The translations under genes and the position numbers were made by a program. From a candidate division FCPU426 bacterium (GTDB lineage: Bacteria > Oederibacteriota > PGYV01 > Palsa-1178), in NCBI GenBank assembly GCA_963840035.1, contig CAWIXE010000002.1, positions 1,568,001 to 1,632,000 on the forward strand: a DNA stretch of 64,000 nucleotides. Reading direction: 5' to 3'. Below, in pieces: positions 2,777 to 34,140 of the stretch (the stretch's first letter is position 1; each line of letters opens with the position of its first letter). Below the pieces are notes generated by a model. It ran no database searches. It was given only the letters and a program-made list of their open reading frames with translations, and was not told where the DNA came from.

Positions 2777-5700
2777 TTAATTTCCCTTTCTTATCTTACG
2801 TATTCCATACCTTGTTATCTTAGCCGACGCCGCGCCCTTTGCTGTTACCTGATAGAGCACCATGCCGTCCTCGACTCCTGCCGAATCCCATACTGTGCTG
2901 TTATATATTTTGCCTTTCTTGCTCTCTTCTATGTTAGCCAGCGTCTTTCCCGACTCATTGTAGACCTTGATGGTTACAAGGCCGTCCTCGGGTATGTAGT
3001 AGTTAAACGTGATTTTCCCTGACGAGGCGTCATACATAGCGAAAATCTCGCTGGATATGTTCATGACTTTTTCCGGTTCGTCCGACTTAAGCTCCACGTC
3101 ATATATCATCTGCGGCGGGAGGTTCTTTGTCAGCACCTTAACTTTCACCTTGCCCACGGGAAGGTTGTCCACGGCAAAGTTTCCGTCCTTATCCGTGATG
3201 GATATGCCAAGCGTGGTTCCGTCTTCCTTCATAAGCTCCACTGTCGCGCCCGAGAGCGCCATGATGCCGTTTGACTGAGTGACTGTCCCTTTTACCGTGA
3301 CCTTGGTCTTTATCTTGACCTTAAAGTGCGCGGCCGTCTTTCCTATAACTCCCTCTTTGTCCACTGAGACCACATGGAAATACCAGATGCCGTCCGTCAG
3401 ATTCGTCATGCTTAAATTAGTGTCCATGGTCTTTGAGTTCTTGGGCCCCGGAACAGTCTTGTCAAAAGCATCCAGGACATAATAGTAGCCTATAATGTCG
3501 TTTACATAGTCCATCGGCTTCCACTGAAGCTTCACTGAAAGGTCCCTGTACCATTTTTCCTGCTCGGGATGCGACGATGAGAACACCAGCGGCGGCGGCG
3601 GGGTCATGGCCACATTTACCTGCATGTGGGATGGCTCGTCCGATATATTGCCCGCGTTGTCCTTGGCAATTACATGCAGGAACCATATGCCGTCAGGCAC
3701 GTCCACAAAAGATGCCATGGAACCTTTTGTCCAGCTCGCGGTGGCAATGTCGGGGATGGTGTTTTTTATCTGGTTGAATACATAGTAATAGCCTTCGATT
3801 CCGGCAGGATCAGCCGGAGTGGACCACGAGAAAGAAGGGGCGTTGCTGTTATACCACTGGTTAAAATCGCCGTGCGTAATCGAGGATATGACCGGCGGTT
3901 TCGGCCTGGTAACGTCGATATTTATCTGGTAATGCGTAGCTTCATCGGACATATTGCCCGCTTCATCCTTTGATATTATATGGAAATACCACGTACCGTC
4001 CGTCACATTCGGGAAACTTATTTCATTGTCCACGTACCAGTTGCCGGTCTTTATGTCCGGCACGGTGGTGGCTATCTGGTCAAAAATATAGTAGTAACCG
4101 GTTATTTTCGTGGCATCCTGCGGCGTGTCCCATATGAGCTTGATATTCCTGTTGTTGTACCACTCCATCTGCATGGGGTGGGTGATGGACCTGACTACCG
4201 GCGGCATGGCAAACCTGTCGCAAATGGCGAGCACCTGTTTGTTCCCGCTTTCCCTTTCATTTCCAACCTTATCAACGGCGCGCACGGTGTAATAATAAAT
4301 AATTCCGTCTTCCAGGTCCTTTGATTCGTCGGTAAACTTGGTGTCTGTCACCGCTCCGTCGTCATTTATCTGCATGCCAAGCTGTCCGGATACCGATGAC
4401 CTGTATATCCTGTAGAAATCAAGGCCTGATATGGAATCAGCCGACTTTGACCATTCTATGTTTATACGCCCTTCCTTAACCGGTTTTGCCACAAGCTGGC
4501 TTATCTGCGAAGGCGGCGATACGTCCACCGTGGTCCTTATGTTGTCGTGCTCAAAGTACTCGGACCAGTTACCGGCGTTATCCCTTGCTTTTGCCCTGAA
4601 ATAATAAGTGATGCCGTCTTCGCCCTTGAACACGGACGTCCTGGCCTTGGTTTCCTTAAGCCACGTTTTCCATTTTCCTTTTTCGCCTTCCCTGTACTCC
4701 ACATCAAAACAGTAAACCCCCGACTCCTTATCCTCGCCATTCCATGAAATGTCAAAATTTTCCGAATTCTGGTAGAGCTTAAGGTCGTCCATTTTAACGT
4801 CCGGCGGATTTGTCTCAATCTTGAACTTATAATGCGCCGCCTCGGTACCGATGTTTCCGGCCCTGTCTTTTAATATAAGGTGAAAATACCACTCGCCGTC
4901 ATCAAGGTTCTCGGATATCTTTATGGCGCTGTCTTTGGTAAACCTGGCTGTCTTCTTATCCGGCATGGTATCCGATACCCTGTCCACCAGGTAATAAAAA
5001 CCTTCCGGCCCGGATAAATCGTCCACGCGGTCCACAACAAATACCGGGTTAACCTGCGCGTAATACCGGTCCGGATTAGGGTGCGTAGATGAGACAACTT
5101 CCGGCGGGTCGGCTTTTAAGTCAACATTCGCCGCGTATATAAAAGGCTCTTCGCCCACGTTGCCCGCGTTATCCTCCGCCACTATATGGAAATAATATGT
5201 GCCTTCTTTTTCCACGGTAAACTCAACCTCGCGTTTGTCAGTCGCGGTCGATATCTCGGGGTTTAGCTTTAAATGCTTATCCTTTGAGAAAAGGTAATAG
5301 AAGCTCTTTATCTTAGATAAATCCTGCGGCACGTTCCAGCCGAGCTTTACAAGCGGCTGGTTATACCATATTGTTTCATCAGGGTGCGAGGCTGAAGTAA
5401 CCTTCGGCTGCTCCACATATGTATCGATCTTCAGCCTGAAATGGGTGGCTTCCCAGCCCACGTTTCCGGCGTTATCCTTTGAAATAATATGGAAGTACCA
5501 GGTGCCGTCCTTGACCTGCGGAAGCGTCAGCTGGTTGGATGACATCCACTCGCCGGTTTCCTTTGAAGGCACGGTGTTATGCTTTTCATCAAAAATATAA
5601 TAATAACCTTCAATACCCGCCAAATCCTCTGAAGTATCCCAGTGGAGCTCGGGCGTGGAGTTTGAGTACCATGTTTCCTGGTCAGGGTGCGTCTTTGAAA

Positions 5701-26012: not shown

Positions 26013-28219
26013 AGAAATTCATAGCCGGCATAAACGGCAAACTTTTTTACAACCACCAGATATCATCGGTCATACGCTTAGACGGAATTAACGCCGTCAA
26101 CGCGGAGGGCATGGAATTCTCCCCTGCCATCGCGAGGTATTTAAAATCCTGCGGCATTGAAAACCTATACACCCACCAGGCAGAGGCAATCAGGCATGTC
26201 AGGGCGGGAAAGAACGTGATAATCACGACACCTACGGCTTCGGGCAAGACACTAGGCTTTAATATCCCTGTATTTGAAAAAATACAGGAAGATAAGGAAA
26301 CAACCGCGCTGTATATTTACCCTGCCAAGGCGCTCTCAAACGACCAGTACAACAACATCAAAGAAATGAAGGCCGCTTCAGGCATAGAAATGGAAGCCGG
26401 CATCTACGACGGCGATACGGAAGCGCAATTAAAGAAACATCTGCGCGAAGAAGCGAACATAATAATAACAAACCCCTACGAGCTTCATCAGGTGCTTCCC
26501 TTCCACCCAAAGTGGAAGAGCTTCTATAAAAACTTAAAATTCGTCGTCATTGACGAGGCCCACAGGTATAAAGGCATCTTCGGGTCCAACATAGCCTTCC
26601 TTCTGCGGCGCTTAAAACGCGTGCTGAAAGTTTATAAGGCAAACCCGCAGTTCATCGCCTCGACCGCGTCAATTGCCAACCCCCTGGAATTCATGGAAAA
26701 ACTTACAGGCGAAGACTTCACAGTTGTTGACAACAACGGCGCGCCATCCGGCGAGAAGCACCTCGTGCTGTGGGACCCGTCAACGTATCCGGAGAAATCA
26801 GTGCATACGCAGACCAAGGATATACTGCTGCACTCAGCCAAATCAGGCTTCCAGACACTCGCGTTTGTGACATCCAGGCGCTTAGCAGAGCTGATCCGGC
26901 GCTGGGCAAACCAGGAGGACCGGGGCGTTGAAATACTTTCCTACCGCGCAGGCTACTCACCCGAGATAAGGCGCGACATTGAGGCAAAATTAAAATCAGG
27001 CGAATTAAAAGGAGTGGTTTCCACAAACGCCCTTGAGCTGGGCATTGACATAGGGCAGCTGGATGTCATCATTATATCCGGTTACCCGGGATCAATTTCA
27101 TCCTTCTGGCAGCAGGCAGGACGTGCCGGGCGCAAGATGAAAGATTCAGCCGTATTCTATATCCCCCACGAAGACGCCATGCAAAAATACATATTAAACC
27201 ACCCGGACATACTGACCTCAAAGAACTTTGAAAACGCTGTTATTTCAACGGAAAACCCCAATATAATAAACGGCCACGTGCTGTGCGCCATATCCGAGGT
27301 AATGGCTGAGAATACAAGGATATTCCCCGACATTGACACGGAGCCATTCATGGAAACGCTCATAGACAAAGGGCTGGTTACAAAAACGCCGCGCGGCCTG
27401 ATTTACGCCGGCTCCAAAAGGCCGCAGGACGTTGTCGGGCTCGATTCCATCGGGTCTAAAAACATCAAGATCAAGATAGATGGCAGGATTCTCGAAGAGA
27501 TATCCGTCACCCGCGCCTATGAAGAAGCGCATAAAGGCGCAGTTCATCTTTTTAACGGTGAGACATATGTCATACAGGAATTGAACCTGGAAGAGGGCGT
27601 GGCAATAGCGGCCAAGGAAGAAGTGGAGCATTACACCGAGACTATGAAAGACGAGGATGTTAAGATACTAAAAATAATGAAATCAAAAGAATACGCGAAC
27701 TTCAAGCTCTTCTTCGGCAATGTTTCAGTCACGGAATTCTATAAATCTTATAAGACCAAAAAAGGCGGCAAGGTCCTTTCCTACGACGACCTCTTCCTGC
27801 CGCCGCTTACGTTTACGACAGAAGCAGTCTGGTTTGAGCTTGACCCCGGCATAAACCGCAAAGTTTTAAAGCAGGACCTCGACTTTGACGGTTCCATCCA
27901 CGCCGCGGAACACGCGCTGATTGCCCTCGCGCCGCTGTGGGCCATGTGCGACAGGAACGACATAGGAGGCAGGTCATACCCGGTATATGAGGACGGAAAC
28001 TCGGTGATTTTTATATACGACGGATACGACGGCGGTATAGGGATATCGGAAAAACTATACGACATATTCCCGTCGCTGGTGACGAATACGCACGACATGG
28101 TAAAGACATGCACGTGTGAGACGGGGTGCCCCTATTGCGTATATTCGCCAAAGTGCGGTAATAATAACAACCCGATAGATAAGGCCGGGGCTGTAGTTAT
28201 ATTGAAGGAATTGTTTTGA
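26000..28219 (+). CDS. DEAH-box helicase with DUF1998 (MrfA/SftH/Hrq1 family)
   Basis: TPTASGKT, IDEAH, STNALELGIDIG, QQAGRAGR, HAAEH, MCD...CTCETGCPYC. Confidence 0.92.
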   Translation: MDRIEKFIAGINGKLFYNHQISSVIRLDGINAVNAEGMEFSPAIARYLKSCGIENLYTHQAEAIRHVRAGKNVIITTPTASGKTLGFNIPVFEKIQEDKETTALYIYPAKALSNDQYNNIKEMKAASGIEMEAGIYDGDTEAQLKKHLREEANIIITNPYELHQVLPFHPKWKSFYKNLKFVVIDEAHRYKGIFGSNIAFLLRRLKRVLKVYKANPQFIASTASIANPLEFMEKLTGEDFTVVDNNGAPSGEKHLVLWDPSTYPEKSVHTQTKDILLHSAKSGFQTLAFVTSRRLAELIRRWANQEDRGVEILSYRAGYSPEIRRDIEAKLKSGELKGVVSTNALELGIDIGQLDVIIISGYPGSISSFWQQAGRAGRKMKDSAVFYIPHEDAMQKYILNHPDILTSKNFENAVISTENPNIINGHVLCAISEVMAENTRIFPDIDTEPFMETLIDKGLVTKTPRGLIYAGSKRPQDVVGLDSIGSKNIKIKIDGRILEEISVTRAYEEAHKGAVHLFNGETYVIQELNLEEGVAIAAKEEVEHYTETMKDEDVKILKIMKSKEYANFKLFFGNVSVTEFYKSYKTKKGGKVLSYDDLFLPPLTFTTEAVWFELDPGINRKVLKQDLDFDGSIHAAEHALIALAPLWAMCDRNDIGGRSYPVYEDGNSVIFIYDGYDGGIGISEKLYDIFPSLVTNTHDMVKTCTCETGCPYCVYSPKCGNNNNPIDKAGAVVILKELF

Positions 28220-28237
28220 GCCGGATGCCAAGCGCCA

Positions 28238-28468
28238 TTATTTCCAGGTATGCGGTTTTATCTGCAGTTGATATCCAGAGGCATAAACAATCGCAAAAAA
28301 TTCCTCAAGCGTCATTTGCCTCCAGCCCTGTCCAGCCTTTTCAGCCCTTTTTTTGGTTCTCTTTGCTTTTTCATCGTCCTTAAGAAATAAAGAATAACTT
28401 GACTTCATGAGTTTCTTTACACGTCTTGTACCTTTTGTTGTTTTGATATGTACCTTTTTTGTTTTCAT
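28238..28468 (-). CDS. Small basic hypothetical protein
   Basis: AAGGGGG SD before ATG 28468; 76 aa; co-oriented with the transposase operon. Confidence 0.5.
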   Translation of the reverse strand: MKTKKVHIKTTKGTRRVKKLMKSSYSLFLKDDEKAKRTKKRAEKAGQGWRQMTLEEFFAIVYASGYQLQIKPHTWK

Positions 28469-28563
28469 ACATTCCCCCTTAATTTTTATAAACCCGATCC
28501 TTTTCGGCGTCCGGCAGGACAACAAACCATCATTTAAATCCGGTGCCCTGCCGGCTAAAGCAA

Positions 28564-28782
28564 TCAGTACCCATTGGATTTTGTGCTGTCCACTCCCTTA
28601 TTTTCCGTTTCCTCCTGCACGTCGCCTGCGAGTGCCTCTTTTCCGCCTTCGCTCTCCAGCTCCCTGACCAGAGCCCTTTCCGCGAACTTGCTTATCTTCA
28701 ATCCCTGTCCGTCACAAAACTTCCTGATCTTATTCCTCAGACTTTTTTCAAGTGTAATCACAAGTTGGGCCTTGTTTTCCAT
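28564..28782 (-). CDS. Ribbon-helix-helix (CopG-like) DNA-binding protein
   Basis: AQLVITLEKSLRNKIRKFCDGQGLKISKFAERAL RHH pattern; AGGAGG SD. Confidence 0.7.
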   Translation of the reverse strand: MENKAQLVITLEKSLRNKIRKFCDGQGLKISKFAERALVRELESEGGKEALAGDVQEETENKGVDSTKSNGY

Positions 28783-28884
28783 TATCATCCCCTCCTTTCT
28801 GATTTGTGCGTTTTTACACACGCTGCCATATTTAGAACGCCAACCGGCTTTAAAAGCCGGGGGATTTCACCCCCCGGCACATGC

Positions 28885-30048
28885 TCACTTTCCCCGGTTA
28901 AGCCGTTTCTTTTTTATCTTTTCAAAAAGCTCCTTAAGCGGGCTCCTTTCCCTTTCCTCCCTGGCTGCGTCCAAAGGGTCCGCGTCCGGGCTGAACCTGT
29001 CGTAACCCGGCGCCGCCTTTATGTCGAGCTTGCGCCTTTTGAGTATCGCGTGTATGCTCAATTTGGGTATTTCCACGTCAGGAAGCTGGTTGTTTATGTA
29101 CACAAGACCGGCATTTACCGATGTTTTCACACCGGCTTTACGCGCGGCGTCCAAAACATCCATCCGTTTCTTCCTCCTTGCCCAGATTTTCCTGAATTCC
29201 TTTACCACGCGTTTTGCGTGACGCTTCCTTATCGCCCTGCTTACAAATCCCGAGTGGTAGTAGACTGTATCGCTTGTATTGCCGTTGAATATCCTCCACG
29301 GATATTCCTGATTTAACTGCCTTTTGACCTCGTCAATTGCGGTCTGGGTCTCTTCAAAGGACAACACACCCTTGTGTTCCAGCGCGCCCTTTATCATCTT
29401 GTTTATCCTCTCAAGCTTGCCGTTAAAACCCGGATACCTCCTCGGGCTTGGCAATGGCGTTATGCCTTCCTTTAAAAGAAGGTCGAGGACATCCGAATTA
29501 TTGAACTCGCTTCCCCTGTCAAATTTGAGATTTACAGGTACTTCCCCTAAACCATAGATGGTATCCCGGATAACCCTTGCGGCTGTTTCACCGTCAATTT
29601 TCGGGCACAACCTGGATGCGAGTATGCTGCGCGAACGCTCGTCAACTATCAGAATGAGGTATGCCCTTCCTTCTTTGACTTTCACATACGTAGTGTCTAT
29701 GGCCCAGCATGAGTGGATATGCTTCCAGTGCACATATTTCGGTTTGCGTTTTATCGCGGATTCCTTCTTCACATTATCCTTTTTTTCCCAGTCTTCTTTC
29801 CTTATCCTCCTTGCCTCACTTTCAGAAACCCCGGCAAACTTCCCCAAAGCATAGTTGGAAATCCTACCGTTATAATGGTCCAGGTATGCCTTTACTTTTT
29901 CCACCGTAATCCATCCGAGGTAATAAACGCCGCCCCTTCTTCTCCCCGGTGTTTCATATTTAAGCTTCCCGGTCAACCGCCTTTTTTCCCAGTCATAAAA
30001 CACGCTGCGCGGCACCCCTGTGGCGGAACAGAAATCCGAAACGCTCAT
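28885..30048 (-). CDS. DDE (rve) transposase, IS3-like OrfB; probably fused to OrfA by -1 frameshift
   Basis: WAIDTTY, LIVDERSR, KFDRGSEF, GKLERIN; frame open back to the A9 run at 30115-30123. Confidence 0.85.
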   Translation of the reverse strand: MSVSDFCSATGVPRSVFYDWEKRRLTGKLKYETPGRRRGGVYYLGWITVEKVKAYLDHYNGRISNYALGKFAGVSESEARRIRKEDWEKKDNVKKESAIKRKPKYVHWKHIHSCWAIDTTYVKVKEGRAYLILIVDERSRSILASRLCPKIDGETAARVIRDTIYGLGEVPVNLKFDRGSEFNNSDVLDLLLKEGITPLPSPRRYPGFNGKLERINKMIKGALEHKGVLSFEETQTAIDEVKRQLNQEYPWRIFNGNTSDTVYYHSGFVSRAIRKRHAKRVVKEFRKIWARRKKRMDVLDAARKAGVKTSVNAGLVYINNQLPDVEIPKLSIHAILKRRKLDIKAAPGYDRFSPDADPLDAAREERERSPLKELFEKIKKKRLNRGK

Positions 30049-30074
30049 GCCTTTCTTTCCAGCGCGCCTGGAAC

Positions 30075-30554
30075 TTAAAAGAAGTACTTTTCTAAGACGC
30101 GCTCCATTTTCCCGTTTTTTTTTGGGTCAAGCCCCTCTTTTTTAAAGAACGAGTACGCATGTGCCAGCATTTCCTTCTGCCTGTTCATCTCATTAATCAC
30201 TGCCTGGAGCCTCGTGTTTTCCATCTTTGTTGTTCTCAGTTGGCGTTCCGACGCTTGCAGGGTTTTCCGTACTTCCGCGTCCCGGACATAGCCCTTCTCC
30301 TTCCTGCCTCTCCGGTTGGATTCCAGGGCCAATATCGCCCCTTCCTGAAACTTTCTGCTCCACTCCCACACCACTTCCCTCGTCACCCCCGCCTGCTTTG
30401 CCGCCTCCTTCACCTGTGTCCTGCCGCAAAGAACTTCCAGTACCGTCCTGAACTTTGTCCTTGCCTGTATCTTCTTGTGAAACCTGTCTTCCGGCGCCTC
30501 TATCTCCGGCATCCTGTTGTTTTCCTCCGGAGCTGCCTGCAATAACTTCGTCAT
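30075..30554 (-). CDS. HTH plus coiled-coil protein, IS3-like OrfA
   Basis: AAAGGAGG SD; VKEAAKQAGVTREVVWEWSRKF HTH; heptad-like C-terminus ending near an A AAA AAA slip site. Confidence 0.8.
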   Translation of the reverse strand: MTKLLQAAPEENNRMPEIEAPEDRFHKKIQARTKFRTVLEVLCGRTQVKEAAKQAGVTREVVWEWSRKFQEGAILALESNRRGRKEKGYVRDAEVRKTLQASERQLRTTKMENTRLQAVINEMNRQKEMLAHAYSFFKKEGLDPKKNGKMERVLEKYFF

Positions 30555-31965
30555 GTTTCTCCTCCTTTGATATATTTTCAAGCGTCTTTCCCGGCCCGTC
30601 CACCGTCATCGTTCCTTCCCTGGCTATTATCCTTATCTCCTTTCCGCCGGCTTTTCCGATGAAGTAAACAGGCTCATTTCCCTGTCTTGGGTCGGCTGCC
30701 ATGGAATCCCTGACCATTACAGCTCCTTTTTCCATGATGTCGCGCATGCCGTCGTCGACCCCAAAAAAACGGTCTGCCGGCACCAGCCCTCCTATCCCCT
30801 GGTGCGGCCGCTTGAAATTATACCACTGTATCCACGCCTTTATTTTTTCTTCGGCGTCTTCAAAGCTGTTCATGGGTTCCTTGCTCAGCAGTTCCTGGTA
30901 CATATTGCGCCAAAGCGATTCTATCTTGCCGAGCGTCTCAGGATGGTACGGCCTGCTCCTTGTATGTTTTATCCCGCTTTGCACGAGGAACTTCTGAAAT
31001 TCGCTTGTCCCGCGCCACGTATAAAACTGCCTGCCGTTGTCGGTCAGCATTTCCTTCGGCATGCCGTATCGCTCTATGGCGGCGCGGAGCACATCCAGGC
31101 ACCTGTCCGTAGTCTGCCTGCGGAACAGGCCAATACTCGCCACAAACCTCGAGTAGTCATCAAGACAGGCAATCACATATACCCTGTAAAGGCCTTGCAG
31201 GAAAAAGGTCATGATGTCCATCTGGTACATCTCACGGGGGTTGGAACGTTCAAAATGTTGCGGTTCTTTGCCGCTGTTGCCATGCCTGAGTTTTTTCTGT
31301 TTTTCCATTAAAGAAACAGTACGGGGATTTTCATTCAATATCTTCCTAATGCGCAGGGCCCCAATCCGCACGAATTTGTTACGGTAAAGCCAGTCAGATA
31401 TCTTCCGTGATCCGATTCCCGGGTTTTCAACTTTAATCCTGATAATTTCGGCTATTATTTCTTGCGGTATCTCCTGATGTTTTTTCCCACATCTTCGGTC
31501 AGCGAGACCCTGTTCCCCATTCTTCCGGAACTTGTCATACCACCCCCTGAAAGTATAAATACCAATGCCATACCATTTACAAAACATTCCTATAGGAGCG
31601 CCTATAGATTCAAATTCTTTTATAAGTTTAAATTTTTCCTCTACACTATAGAACCGGCTCCTCGAAAATGATTGTTTTTGTTTATTTGCACGGCCCAACT
31701 TTTTCGCAAACTTTTTCGTAAAACTTCCGGGATTGTTGCGGATATTTCCGGCGAATAATCCTTGTTCCTGCAAATTCTTTTTATTAGACGAATTTGATGA
31801 ATAAAAATCCCGTTGATATGTTTTTGATTGTATGTTGGCCTTGAGATTTTGGCCGGGGAATTCCAGATTGTATGTTTTCTTTTGTCTCGGATAGTTTCTT
31901 AGCTGTTTTTTCGTCATGTAGCGTGAATCGTCTTCAAAATCGGGTTGTCTTTTCTGGTAAGCCAT
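30193..31965 (-). CDS. IS481-like DDE transposase/integrase with low-complexity C-tail overlapping OrfA
   Basis: AGGAGG SD; HTH; YQMDI, CLDDYSR, LTDNGRQF, GKIESLW, RPHQGIGGLVPADRF. Confidence 0.9.
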   Translation of the reverse strand: MAYQKRQPDFEDDSRYMTKKQLRNYPRQKKTYNLEFPGQNLKANIQSKTYQRDFYSSNSSNKKNLQEQGLFAGNIRNNPGSFTKKFAKKLGRANKQKQSFSRSRFYSVEEKFKLIKEFESIGAPIGMFCKWYGIGIYTFRGWYDKFRKNGEQGLADRRCGKKHQEIPQEIIAEIIRIKVENPGIGSRKISDWLYRNKFVRIGALRIRKILNENPRTVSLMEKQKKLRHGNSGKEPQHFERSNPREMYQMDIMTFFLQGLYRVYVIACLDDYSRFVASIGLFRRQTTDRCLDVLRAAIERYGMPKEMLTDNGRQFYTWRGTSEFQKFLVQSGIKHTRSRPYHPETLGKIESLWRNMYQELLSKEPMNSFEDAEEKIKAWIQWYNFKRPHQGIGGLVPADRFFGVDDGMRDIMEKGAVMVRDSMAADPRQGNEPVYFIGKAGGKEIRIIAREGTMTVDGPGKTLENISKEEKHDEVIAGSSGGKQQDAGDRGAGRQVSQEDTGKDKVQDGTGSSLRQDTGEGGGKAGGGDEGSGVGVEQKVSGRGDIGPGIQPERQEGEGLCPGRGSTENPASVGTPTENNKDGKHEAPGSD

Positions 31966-31998
31966 GATATATTACCTCCTGAAGAGATTTCAGGGGCT

Positions 31999-32053
31999 AA
32001 TATGTTAGGCAATTAAATACGGGAAGGTGTCTAATTATTCATGAATTATAACA
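31999..32053 (-). mobile_element. Putative transposon end A (TGT-N19-GACA...TTTAATTGCCTAACATATT on minus strand)
   Basis: Upstream of the transposase; truncates ORF 32039-32224; subterminal 19-mer matches end B at 18/19. Confidence 0.65.
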
Positions 32054-32224
32054 ATTAAACAAAGGAATAAAATTTGTTCCATCATCATTGCAGTTTCCTA
32101 AAACAATAACAACATCGGTTAGCGAACAAGTGCCAAATTCCACTTTTTCATTTAGAGCATATACAAAATTATAAACAAAAAATATAAAGAATGTTATAAT
32201 GAAAAATTTGAAGAACCTTTTCAT
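32039..32224 (-). pseudogene. Truncated secreted protein (signal peptide plus short stub)
   Basis: Signal-peptide-like N-terminus; frame ends just after crossing the TGT of end A. Confidence 0.55.
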
Positions 32225-33264
32225 GATTTAATTGCTCCATTAGAATATTTAATAATTAAACCTGAGTTTTTGCCTAACCACAACTGGAAAATATTACCAT
32301 CTTTACTTATATATATATCTTTGCGTGGTTTATAAGTAAATTCTTTCCTTAATTTTACGATATTAACAATATTTCCTTTTTTATTTATAACCATAATCAA
32401 TCTCTCTTGTTTTGCTGATTCATAAAATTTATTCTCGGGTTTCATTAATTCCCATAACAAATATATAGTTCCATTTTTATCAATTCCAGAAAGAGAATCC
32501 TTAGCCAAATAATATTCGCTGTTAATATCATTTACTAATGAATTTATGTTTAATTCAATCCAATCGTAACAATTTCCACTAATACACTTTTGTATTATTT
32601 TTTTACTGTTGTTTTTAGCCGCATCTACAGGTATTATGATTTTATAATCTAATTTATCATCATTGTTATAATATCTTTCTTTTGTTTGTCTAACTTTATT
32701 GCTTATTTCTTCGATTTCATTTTTTTCTTTTAACTTTTTGATTTTATTTTGTTTTTCTGTAAATAAATTATATGATTCCTTTTCGGTAAGTTTACGACTT
32801 TTAATTTCAAAATCTGAATATGGTTTTACAACTACGATATTGCCATCATTTGTATCAATCAGATCATTACCATATCGGTCCCCTTCAAAATCAATTGGAA
32901 AATTCTGACTTGTTTTTTCTTTGCTAATTTTTACAATACGACTATTAACGCTGTCCAATATATACATAGCATTATCCTTAACAATAAATGCGCTTGGACA
33001 AAAACTTCCACCCTTTACCCCCAATTCATTTTCTTTGGAACCATATTGTATTTCTGCAACTATAACACCTTTATCCTTGGCGTTTTCTTTGATCTTATTT
33101 ATTACAATTTTGGAAATATCAAGTTTGCTAACGGTGTTTTCATTGTTTGATTTAATGTTAGAATTTTCTTGTGCGTTGTTATATTGTGCTAAAACCAAAA
33201 TTAAAATAGAACAAATTAAGCATTTCTTCATCTTCCCCTCCATTATTTTTTCACCTTTATCCAT
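32221..33264 (-). CDS. AT-rich secreted hypothetical protein, beta-propeller/NHL-like segments
   Basis: Signal peptide from MKKCLICSILILVLAQYNNA; PSAFIV..MYILDSVNSRIV and DIYISKDGNIFQL blades. Confidence 0.65.
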   Translation of the reverse strand: MDKGEKIMEGKMKKCLICSILILVLAQYNNAQENSNIKSNNENTVSKLDISKIVINKIKENAKDKGVIVAEIQYGSKENELGVKGGSFCPSAFIVKDNAMYILDSVNSRIVKISKEKTSQNFPIDFEGDRYGNDLIDTNDGNIVVVKPYSDFEIKSRKLTEKESYNLFTEKQNKIKKLKEKNEIEEISNKVRQTKERYYNNDDKLDYKIIIPVDAAKNNSKKIIQKCISGNCYDWIELNINSLVNDINSEYYLAKDSLSGIDKNGTIYLLWELMKPENKFYESAKQERLIMVINKKGNIVNIVKLRKEFTYKPRKDIYISKDGNIFQLWLGKNSGLIIKYSNGAIKS

Positions 33265-33313
33265 GTAAAGGCTGCTGGTTGGTTTATCGCTACATTACTA
33301 ATTTTTGTATTTG

Positions 33314-33367
33314 TGTATTGAGCGCGATTTGTTTGGACATTTTACCCCTTTAATTGCCTTACATATT
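33314..33367 (+). mobile_element. Putative transposon end B (TGT-N19-GACA...TTTAATTGCCTTACATATT)
   Basis: Same architecture as end A, inverted orientation. Confidence 0.6.
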
Positions 33368-33755
33368 TTAACCCTCTGTTAATTCAAATTATAGCAGACA
33401 ATTCTTCTCTTTTCAACCCGAAAGATAAATTATTTTAAAAATTTTGAAATTTAACCGGAATTTTTGCATTCATTTCAAAAATTCACAAATTTTCCCGGAG
33501 TTCAGGGGCCTTATGCTCCTATAAAAATTTATAAATATCGTTTTTTCTATAAATAATTCTATAATTTTATGAAAAGCTGATAGACCCGGGGACAATTTCT
33601 GTACATTATAGCGCTATGCTAAACAATAAACGCAAATAATTGGAAAACCATGCGCGGAATGGATATTGATTTTTTTACATCACTTGCTTGATAATCTAAA
33701 CAGGTTCACGGTATATTTACATTTTGAAAACATTTTCAAATAACGATTTATTTCC

Positions 33756-33808
33756 CCGCTTTACTTCACCACAGAGGCGGTCTGGTTTGAGCTGAGCCCC
33801 GGCATAAA
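33756..33808 (+). repeat. Diverged direct copy of mrfA-like helicase segment 27803-27855
   Basis: 43/53 nt identical; encodes PLYFTTEAVWFELSPGI versus PLTFTTEAVWFELDPGI. Confidence 0.85.
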
Positions 33809-33827
33809 GATTGGATTTCCCTGTCGC

Positions 33828-33976
33828 GGGCGAGCCATCGGCTCGCCCCTACGAACCTAAAATTAATCTCACCGTTGCGGGCCGCCACATGGGGCGGCCC
33901 CTACAGGGGTTGTAAATATTTATGACAACACAAAAACAAATCCAACCTTGCGGGCGGACACATATTCCGCCCCTAC
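33828..33976. repeat. Three GTAG-type REP hairpins (...CCCCTAC)
   Basis: GGGCGAGCCATCGGCTCGCCCCTAC, GGGCCGCC..GGCGGCCCCTAC, GGGCGGA..TCCGCCCCTAC. Confidence 0.85.
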
Positions 33977-34012
33977 GGGGTTAGTAATTTTGGTTTGTAC
34001 TTCCGGCTTCAT

Positions 34013-34140
34013 CCCCTCTCCCTCGATGGGAGAGGGTGCTGCAGCAGCTGATACCTTGGCAATACCTCGAGGTTGTGCCGCAGGGATAGCCGCTACAGCA
34101 CCCCCCATCCCATCCTTCCCCCTTGAAGGGGGAAGGGGAA
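34013..34140. repeat. CCCCTCTCCC/GGGAGAGGG-type palindromic element, copy 2
   Basis: Homologous to 16291-16459. Confidence 0.7.

Follow-up and report, generated by a model that had tools for sequence, protein, structure and literature searches.

An apparently undescribed insertion sequence family that probably keeps two different DDE transposases within one pair of ends, and its inside-out member in a candidate division FCPU426 bacterium

The locus lies on contig CAWIXE010000002.1 of assembly GCA_963840035.1, within a stretch of 64,000 nucleotides (the window) whose coordinates are used below, and its features are on the minus strand unless stated otherwise. Its five co-oriented ORFs were recovered as an earlier note on this DNA had described them. 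The first, tnp1 (30193..31965), encodes a 590-aa IS481-like DDE transposase (Pfam rve, E 1e-18, together with rve_3 and HTH_32/HTH_28) that carries an N-terminal extension common to P0012, P0013, and P0016 and a low-complexity tail overlapping orfA. The frame of orfA (30075..30581; 168 aa from a TTG, with an alternative ATG and SD at 30554) is overprinted on this tail, which bears out the interlocking of frames noted earlier, and its product combines a weakly matched HTH with a coiled coil. The second DDE transposase, encoded by tnp2/orfB (28885..30048; 387 aa; Pfam rve, E 4e-14), has an integrase-like fold, is 20% identical to Tnp1, and ends in a C-terminal tail of ~60 aa, also seen in P0002, P0003, and P0007, which occupies the place where a right end normally overlaps the tnp2 stop. 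Both enzymes retain their D-D-E residues. At an A9 run (30115..30123) tnp2 lies in the −1 frame relative to orfA, and a −1 shift at this run would yield an OrfA-Tnp2 fusion (predicted OrfAB, 556 aa); a hairpin is predicted 3′ of the run (−15.7 kcal/mol as bare folding energy). The IS3-like frameshift proposed in the earlier note is thus found as a sequence signal, as are its intact catalytic residues and its four SD sites, since SD-like sequences precede tnp1, orfA, and the two small ORFs, while the SD of tnp2 is weak. Scanning of the locus proteins returned DDE and HTH families only and no XerD-like tyrosine recombinase.

The two small downstream ORFs were examined as candidate parts of the system. 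The 85-aa ORF (28564..28821) is a passenger or neighbour; it has no Pfam RHH match, and in the ESM Atlas RHH clusters appear at 0.92 but rank behind unnamed phage clusters, so its RHH identity is likely but serves as a lead only. The 77-aa basic ORF (28238..28471) is without family match. Neither was matched in any of 105 other loci, and among 24 genomes from the order 18 have RHH relatives at unlinked sites, which rules both out as dedicated parts; the regulator of the earlier note therefore keeps its likely identity but loses its membership, and the small basic ORF drops out.

The left end (31994..32053) carries a TGT tip at 32053 and an inner TT(A/G)GACA box at positions 20–26, with the tnp1 SD and ATG after it. 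The right end (33314..33373) lies upstream of the left end, with its ACA tip at 33314 pointing into the cargo, so that both window ends have TGT at the tip, and its tip-to-box spacing equals that of the right ends of a paralogue in the same genome and of the metagenomic locus L042. This right end falls outside the range covered by the earlier note (28238..32053), in which the paralogous element was also not noticed. The window copy is thus inside-out, with right and left ends facing each other across 1,260 bp of foreign-looking cargo (32054..33313; 26.9% GC). The cargo contains a gene at 32221-33264 encoding a secreted protein of 340–347 aa, probably a beta-propeller (an Atlas lead, with recognition below 2300), together with the 5′ portion of the following gene (32054-32224), which is cut at the left end. 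A sigma70-type promoter consensus at 33388..33416 (TTGAAA-17-TATAAT with TG, 11/12), the best of 16 sites in 28200-33800, would drive transcription across the right end towards the cargo. On the plus strand, a 53-nt segment at 33756..33808 repeats a helicase gene segment at 27803-27855 with 81% identity and mostly synonymous differences; this duplicate is possibly a scar from integration of the 5.95-kb block between both copies.

The window genome (G000) holds three modules of this subtype, in which 3/3 right ends and 3/3 left ends are paired inside-out, with spacers of 1,260 bp (window), 436 bp, and 1 bp. The module on contig C1 is a 1-bp right-left junction, empty of cargo (G000:C1:1106218-1106220), and has the promoter at the same position (10/12). 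The module on contig C3 (slot at C3:165595-166030), where no promoter was called, holds an Imm-NTF2-2 immunity gene (E 6e-11), antisense to the promoter direction, and the tail of a cut upstream ORF. The window and C3 cargo are bounded exactly by the tips and cut mid-gene, and neither slot holds an array: one gene and one cut gene in the window, one gene in C3. Across the three modules the tips and inner box of the ends are kept, while positions 4–19 have diverged. The GC content of the cargo (27–30%) falls in the lowest 0.1–0.5% of genome windows; no nucleotide copy of the cargo was found elsewhere in the genome, nor did 23 other genomes from this order yield any relative. Both G000 and a second genome, G010, have a single copy of the subtype, whose two enzymes each bear lineage-specific extensions. 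The G010 left end is preceded by AT-rich cargo, and no right end was found by pattern, BLAST, or matrix search (the last over about 20 kb), so the complete inside-out order is seen in one genome only. Unlike the canonical two-DDE layout, neither the window copy nor that of G010 has a right end at the tnp2 stop, and the two form a derived subtype of the family.

Whether the two transposase genes belong to one element is answered by the paralogue, of which three identical 2,765-bp copies, each with one end pair around both genes, lie between unrelated flanks; copy A connects a giant gene, truncated at 1,621 aa, with the region upstream of ribH, and relatives of that gene have open frames of about 3,900–7,000 aa where contigs allow. 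The same two-enzyme layout was found in 21 complete metagenomic relatives. Of 42 metagenome loci whose sequence extends 1,200 bp or more upstream of tnp2, 35 contain tnp1, and a search starting from tnp1 found tnp2 downstream at 21 of 27 places. All 26 full loci carry two DDE genes with all six catalytic residues invariant, an ORF overlapping the tnp2 start, and an A6–A9 run at that place; tnp2 lies in the −1 frame of this ORF in 8 and in the +1 frame in 18, which takes in the majority of the distant relatives. Purifying selection acts on both genes (dN/dS over 10 pairs, 0.11–0.23 for tnp1 and 0.13–0.52 for tnp2), with Tnp2 evolving about twice as fast as Tnp1. The tnp1 and tnp2 trees share 11 of 23 splits, whereas 2,000 label shuffles never gave more than 4; they disagree in the L051-L097 group, where tnp2 dN/dS is highest. 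These observations of one end pair, 21 relatives of the same layout, and congruent trees indicate that the unit is one element and not two nested insertion sequences (ISs), in agreement with the earlier note, which had found no IS ends between the genes. That finding also stands: in 27801-31950 nothing rises above background, the best end-like site scoring 15.1 (at 28444) against 33–50 for true ends.

Solitary occurrence was found for one enzyme only. At L042 a relative of Tnp1 is found by itself, enclosed by similar ends of its own, so that Tnp2 may be dispensable; this is part of what the earlier note had named as counting against a single element. The same short tail recurs in about 11 of 75 Tnp1 homologues, compared as proteins, and tnp2 was never seen by itself next to a left end belonging to it. 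Where an inverted partner end could be placed, relatives other than the window subtype are canonical. Among the 21 relatives, the left tip reads TGT (8), TGG (7), TGC (5), or TAT (1), and 19 have a TGT right tip. Local alignment of ends gave no clear partner for L230, L056, or G010, and for loci of the phylum Planctomycetota a first end scan gave no match and an anchored search mostly noise. For L235, the local alignment gave an upstream match. A search for further near-clade members gave 3 of 99 genomes of the phylum, none of them new, and 3 loci in the genome collection; the viral collection held no family member by protein and one chance DNA match, and plasmids gave only IS3-type matches of 26–31% among the 15 listed of 51 records. 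The family is widespread and apparently undescribed; a literature search of mostly open papers, outside ISfinder and TnPedia, found neither a two-DDE IS nor an inside-out capture module.

Direct repeats at the 21 complete elements measure 0 bp in 15, 1 bp in 5, and 2 bp in 1, like mismatched-flank controls, so that no element, near-identical copies included, has a target duplication of more than 2 bp. When the comparison was extended up to the flank ends, neither exact target duplications nor any of 80% likeness or more appeared, although the short flanks of several contigs might hide very long ones; the flanks of G000 copies A and B are unique, and none of the three paralogue copies has a target duplication. 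Absent duplications can also stem from later adjacent deletions or inter-copy recombination, according to the accessible part of PMC11708052. The 1-bp right-left junction recurs in the tandem at L066 in assembled DNA.

Taken together, we assign a probability of roughly 0.6 to the joint reading that the locus is a member of an IS family with two different intact DDE transposases in one end pair, that the family makes no target duplication, and that the inside-out order stems from a joined-ends intermediate. Judging from these sequences, the most likely route is copying out via such an intermediate, with each end joined to a separate target site. One end would attack the other, one base away, and form an IS3-type copy-out junction. 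Tnp1, conserved and able to stand alone, would bind the inner box common to both ends, and OrfAB, likely made at a low level via slippage, would act as the second catalytic partner. The ends would then likely be joined to two separate target sites and not to one staggered cut, which would give deletion-type joints without duplication. The inside-out order likely arose because the copy descends from a joined-ends intermediate fixed in the chromosome; the same reaction on such a chromosomal junction would place new DNA between the ends, and the 436-bp and 1,260-bp spacers likely arose in this way. The modules may accordingly be relics of joined-ends junctions or, more doubtfully, working gene-capture slots.

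An explanation that we hold possible at somewhat short of even odds is that the modules are inert, left by deletions in tandem or nearby two-DDE (or tnp1-only) copies, the window holding a decayed canonical 3.6-kb transposon that ends at 28444 with the RHH gene as passenger, and the upstream promoter and right end deriving from another copy. The normal 3′ end of the solo L042 element indeed consists of a promoter-like stretch and, after it, a right end, tandem junctions such as that at L066 occur in the family, REP arrays adjoin the C1 and C3 modules, and AT-rich toxin-immunity regions flank canonical copies too. The candidate decayed right end (28444..28495) sits at the normal right-end position and matches each of three right ends at 27 of 52 bases; however, it lacks both the TGT tip and the inner box, 13–176 genome positions score equally high, its alignment score is reached by 79 of 1,000 shuffles, and in G010 a downstream end is also absent. 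This explanation further needs three independent losses of both outer parts with no unpaired end left, and tnp1, orfA, and tnp2 are all intact in the window.

A more tentative proposal is that the long-tail subtype has become sessile and that its enzymes work on their own facing ends and also, in trans, on both modules that lack enzymes; they would exchange pieces of foreign DNA, here orphan immunity and secreted-protein genes, for expression from the promoter, like an integron or rAID on DDE chemistry. In such a case a heteromeric DDE transposase might join chromosomal ends to separate foreign sites and install gene-sized pieces without cassette sites. Consistent with this are the inside-out pairing of all three end pairs around differing, tip-bounded spacers, one of them empty, the conservation of tips and spacing in otherwise diverged ends, the promoter at the same place in two of three modules, the low-GC cargo with no copy elsewhere in the genome, the immunity gene and cut ORF tail in C3, and the single-copy state and enzyme extensions of the subtype in both genomes. 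Against it stand the single cargo per slot without arrays, the antisense orientation of the C3 cargo, the G010 locus without a right end, the restriction of the complete arrangement to one genome, and the weak downstream end at 28444.

It is unlikely that Tnp1 alone transposes the element, with Tnp2/OrfAB kept but non-essential or regulatory and duplications lost by frequent adjacent deletions. The solo L042 element, the Tnp1 homologues with its short tail, and the faster evolution of Tnp2 would fit this view, but the Tnp2 triad is invariant in 26/26 loci at about 20% identity, tnp2 dN/dS is below 1 in 10/10 pairs, and the lack of duplications extends to all 21 elements and to near-identical copies. 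Two nested or adjacent independent ISs, suggested by the best profiles (IS481 for Tnp1, IS3/IS481 for OrfA-Tnp2), are ruled out by the three identical paralogue copies in a single end pair, in agreement with the overprinted frames and congruent trees.

In IS3 elements, OrfA (HTH and coiled coil) overlaps a DDE OrfB at an A-rich slippery site, and one catalytic transposase produces a 3–4-bp duplication. The two-DDE family resembles this group (IS911, IS2, IS150; NF033516) in its OrfA/OrfB overlap and slippery site, but differs in the extra full transposase upstream, the 1-bp junction spacer, the missing duplication, the +1 frame of tnp2 in the majority of distant relatives, and NF033516 scores below the cut-off of 160 bits (Tnp2, 81.9–85.4; Tnp1, 141.7; enzymes scored singly, unfused). 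The heteromeric TnsA+TnsB transposase of Tn7 likewise places two catalytic proteins in one element; TnsA, however, does not belong to the DDE/RNase H enzymes, and transposition of Tn7 depends on the TnsC ATPase and creates 5-bp duplications, whereas no ATPase gene was seen in the two-DDE elements. A joined-ends junction belongs to copy-out-paste-in transposition, and IS481 has TGT tips, as stated in the accessible sections of 10.1101/2022.12.17.520857. Tnp1 resembles IS481 (NF033577) as an HTH and rve DDE enzyme, and IS481 of SBW25 has inverted repeats of ~50 bp, as does the two-DDE family (PMC11708052, accessible text). The IS481 examples compared, as far as the available sources describe them, span 1.0–1.3 kb with one gene and 4–6-bp duplications, in contrast to 2.8–3.5 kb, two DDE genes, no duplication, variable left tips, and NF033577 scores of 201.9 (window) and 218.7 bits (paralogue), both below the cut-off of 224. 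The IS movements of Ngan et al. 2024 also leave an element where unrelated DNA is joined, without duplication, but in the available portion of that paper (PMC11708052) this is a minority outcome of single-enzyme ISs, as opposed to 21/21 elements here. For the inside-out modules only, there is a functional likeness to rAID-1 and integrons, in which, from the accessible part of 10.1101/471110, a tyrosine recombinase gene lies by low-GC immunity-type cargo that a promoter can read, with repeated intergenic sites and multi-gene arrays. The inside-out modules differ in having DDE enzymes, transposon ends as sites, and one mid-gene-cut piece per slot. Integrons are also recognised by their attI and attC sites and by the attC hairpins of their cassettes.

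To our knowledge, the accepted picture of a bacterial DDE insertion sequence has a single catalytic enzyme and a single staggered cut in the target. Two diverged active sites in a family that makes no duplication would allow a direct test of how transposases can join unrelated DNA, a question posed for occasional events in the accessible text of PMC11708052, and the empty 1-bp C1 junction is a ready-made test substrate. If the capture reading were true, it would amount to integron-like acquisition for which the incoming DNA needs no cassette sites. Should the inside-out modules be functional, they would mark a path from a selfish transposon to a device for gene capture that does not depend on a recognition site in the DNA taken up, and would offer a compact enzyme pair that replaces DNA instead of inserting it.

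All five minus-strand ORFs that the earlier note had claimed in the window are present. Pfam rve is matched by both Tnp1 (590 aa; 31965-30193) and the second, dissimilar DDE protein Tnp2 (387 aa; 30048-28885), and HTH matches to OrfA (30581-30075) are weak. Each transposase falls below its curated IS-family threshold (Tnp1, 201.9 against the IS481 cut-off of 224; Tnp2, 81.9 against the IS3 cut-off of 160); their profile alignment identity is 20%, and the predicted Tnp2 structure (mean pLDDT 80.6) resembles retroviral integrase cores. An A9 run (30115-30123) sets tnp2 in the -1 frame of orfA, with a predicted fusion of 556 aa. The window Tnp2 extends into a ~60-aa tail common to the homologues P0002, P0003 (from G010, a genome with a close relative of the element) and P0007. 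GC-rich hairpins resembling IS200/IS605-type end remnants directly follow tnp2 in both long-tail copies (window 28845-28880; L037:10921-10950 and 5460-5490), and REP-like hairpin repeats, abundant genome-wide, cluster at 33810-34140.

We place the window element in a family carrying two DDE enzymes with a probability of about 0.95, which upholds the earlier reading of one element with two such enzymes. In the source genome (G000), a canonical paralogue (identity to the window proteins 66% for Tnp1, 28% for OrfA and 31% for Tnp2) occurs as three identical 2,765-bp copies with left tip TAT (C2:829726-832490, C1:589168-591932 and C1:341298-344062), both transposase genes lying inside one pair of imperfect ~50-bp inverted repeats. 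A metagenome scan with the Tnp2 alignment returned 77 loci. Sequence of 1,200 bp or more upstream of tnp2 is available for 42, and 35 of these have tnp1; the other seven comprise five 5'-truncated copies (L064, L092, L095, L108 and L119, with L092 and L095 being one and the same site), a contig that begins inside the tnp1 tail (L117) and an unrelated match (L116). Conversely, querying 401 genomes (the phylum of G099) with Tnp1 located 27 places in 24 genomes, 21 of them with a second DDE gene downstream; four others have too little adjoining DNA, one is a truncated copy and one, L042 (1-1464), carries tnp1 alone between its own ends, which are built like those of the family. About 11 short-tailed Tnp1 homologues may share this tnp1-only class.

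Across 26 two-gene loci (both genes present, near-duplicates excluded), none of the six catalytic residues varies and the tnp2 start carries an A6-A9 run; dN/dS over 10 pairs is 0.11-0.23 for tnp1 and 0.13-0.52 for tnp2. The Tnp1 and Tnp2 trees have 11 of 23 splits in common against a shuffle maximum of 4, bearing out the congruence proposed as a check, though close relatives are placed differently in the two; the evolutionary rate of Tnp2 is about double that of Tnp1. It is likely that both enzymes are needed catalytically. The RHH protein and small ORF, counted earlier as parts of the system, have zero matches in 105 other loci; RHH relatives are present in 18 of 24 genomes of the order, and no transposase match was found at the seven such loci examined.

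The TGT tip of the window left end, which precedes tnp1, is at 32053. Relatives have their right end across the tnp2 stop or closely after it; in the window it is found at 33314, upstream of the left end and directed towards it. A genome-wide matrix scan of G000 found six ends of this long-tail subtype, three right and three left, all as right-spacer-left pairs: the window module (spacer 1,260 bp), the C3 module (C3:165594-166031, 436 bp) and the C1 module (C1:1106218-1106220, 1 bp), with leave-one-out scores of 33-50 against a background below 20. Tip and inner box are kept in all, whereas at positions 4-19 same-type ends agree at only 6-12 of 16 bases, so the module ends are diverged relatives and not recent copies. 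The modules have in common ~130 bp ahead of the right end, as well as the stretch from the left end down to the tnp1 SD and ATG; transposase genes are absent from the C1 and C3 modules. The C1 module (C1:1105990-1106330; L005:5000-5330) reads promoter, right end, 1 bp, left end, SD-ATG, is edged by REP-like hairpins and sits upstream of rpsO-pnp-like genes. An 11/12 promoter consensus, the best in the region, lies just upstream of the window right end, with a consensus at the equivalent place in C1 and no promoter called in C3. All three right ends (33314-33345 in the window) contain an SD-like run, together with an ATG that lies nine codons from the tip in a frame open to the spacer; this may be a by-product of the inner box. 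The full inside-out order is known from this one genome.

The cargo has a GC content of 27-30%, the lowest 0.1-0.5% of genome windows, and is truncated mid-gene at the left tip. The window cargo gene encodes a secreted, probably beta-propeller protein (an Atlas lead); the C3 module (C3:165450-166140; L004) holds an Imm-NTF2-2 immunity gene of NTF2 fold, oriented against the promoter, and the tail of a cut ORF. In G010 an AT-rich secreted gene precedes the left end, together with a truncated gene that we take from its Pfam domains to be IS1182-type; searches there revealed no right end. Several near-clade copies have RHS-type tips, immunity-like genes or a giant RHS-like gene as neighbours (L003:3918-9621, L038:2672-3472, L001:8461-13326), and at G000:C1:635100-639000 (L006) another IS3-like element forms a tandem pair with an RHS-core-like region after it.

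At 28444-28495 a weak site, placed and oriented like an ordinary right end, may be a decayed one. It matches each of three right ends at 27 of 52 bases, without tip or box; equal scores occur at 13-176 genome positions and in 4-30 of 8,819 SD-ATG windows, and shuffled sequences match or exceed its gapped score 79 times in 1,000. Because a non-coding promoter-like stretch also precedes the right end of the solo element L042, where it is normal, the window upstream module could be what is left of such a copy. Elsewhere, two left ends lie 654 bp apart in direct orientation (L056:6310 and 6964), of which the first leads into a decayed tnp1 start, and two decayed tnp1-start remnants without recognisable ends surround AT-rich DNA at L172:1-560 (G005:C40).

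Both ends could be placed for 21 metagenomic elements; among them, the longest direct repeat abutting the element was 0 bp in 15, 1 bp in five and 2 bp in one, the same as in mismatched-flank controls, and no target duplication was found at the three paralogue copies or at four copies in G227 and G298. The flanks of the paralogue copies are unrelated. Copy A links a giant gene that breaks off at 1,621 aa with the ribH upstream region; this gene's relatives have open frames of up to about 3,900-7,000 aa in seven of the nine full-scoring places listed from other genomes, and a search of G000 for the missing middle found nothing. Copy C, judging by motifs, presumably sits between a uvrD-like fragment and an RHS-type tip. 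Such flanks fit a reaction in which each end is joined to a site of its own; deletion of neighbouring DNA after insertion yields the same picture, as described in PMC11708052.

The element works like an IS3/IS481-type copy-out element and lies outside both families, with enzyme number, profile cut-offs and duplication all disagreeing. Copy-out would pass through a joined-ends intermediate, with the second catalytic partner produced through slippage and the two ends joined in an uncoupled manner. Right-left junctions of 1 bp occur in C1 and in a tandem at L066, and 10.1101/2022.12.17.520857 describes joined-ends circles for the IS1202 family. A 53-nt MrfA-type helicase repeat (27803-27855 and 33756-33808; 81%, differences mostly synonymous) hints at a 5.95-kb circle integrated by host recombination; a 198-nt uvrD-like piece, 89% identical to the resident gene, lies in the left flank of copy C (L003), so that helicase gene fragments adjoin two different copies.

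For the modules, inert relics are a serious possibility short of probable. Were a junction fixed in the chromosome, the same reaction could replace the DNA between the ends, and working capture slots of this kind are a tentative reading; once-active intermediates take the remaining share. The modules resemble rAID-1 clusters in cargo and differ in having no tyrosine recombinase or arrays (10.1101/471110). According to PMC9330008, IS ends with complete outward promoters are known, and ISEcp1 and ISCR capture adjacent DNA, holding it inside the mobile unit, unlike the inside-out modules. The IS481 elements shown in PMC2516522 and PMC3196728 are one-gene only. A literature search, with ISfinder and subscription journals outside its scope, found no published description of a two-DDE IS or an inside-out module. 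A categorically new gene-capture system is less likely than not, and the three identical paralogue copies are the best experimental starting material.
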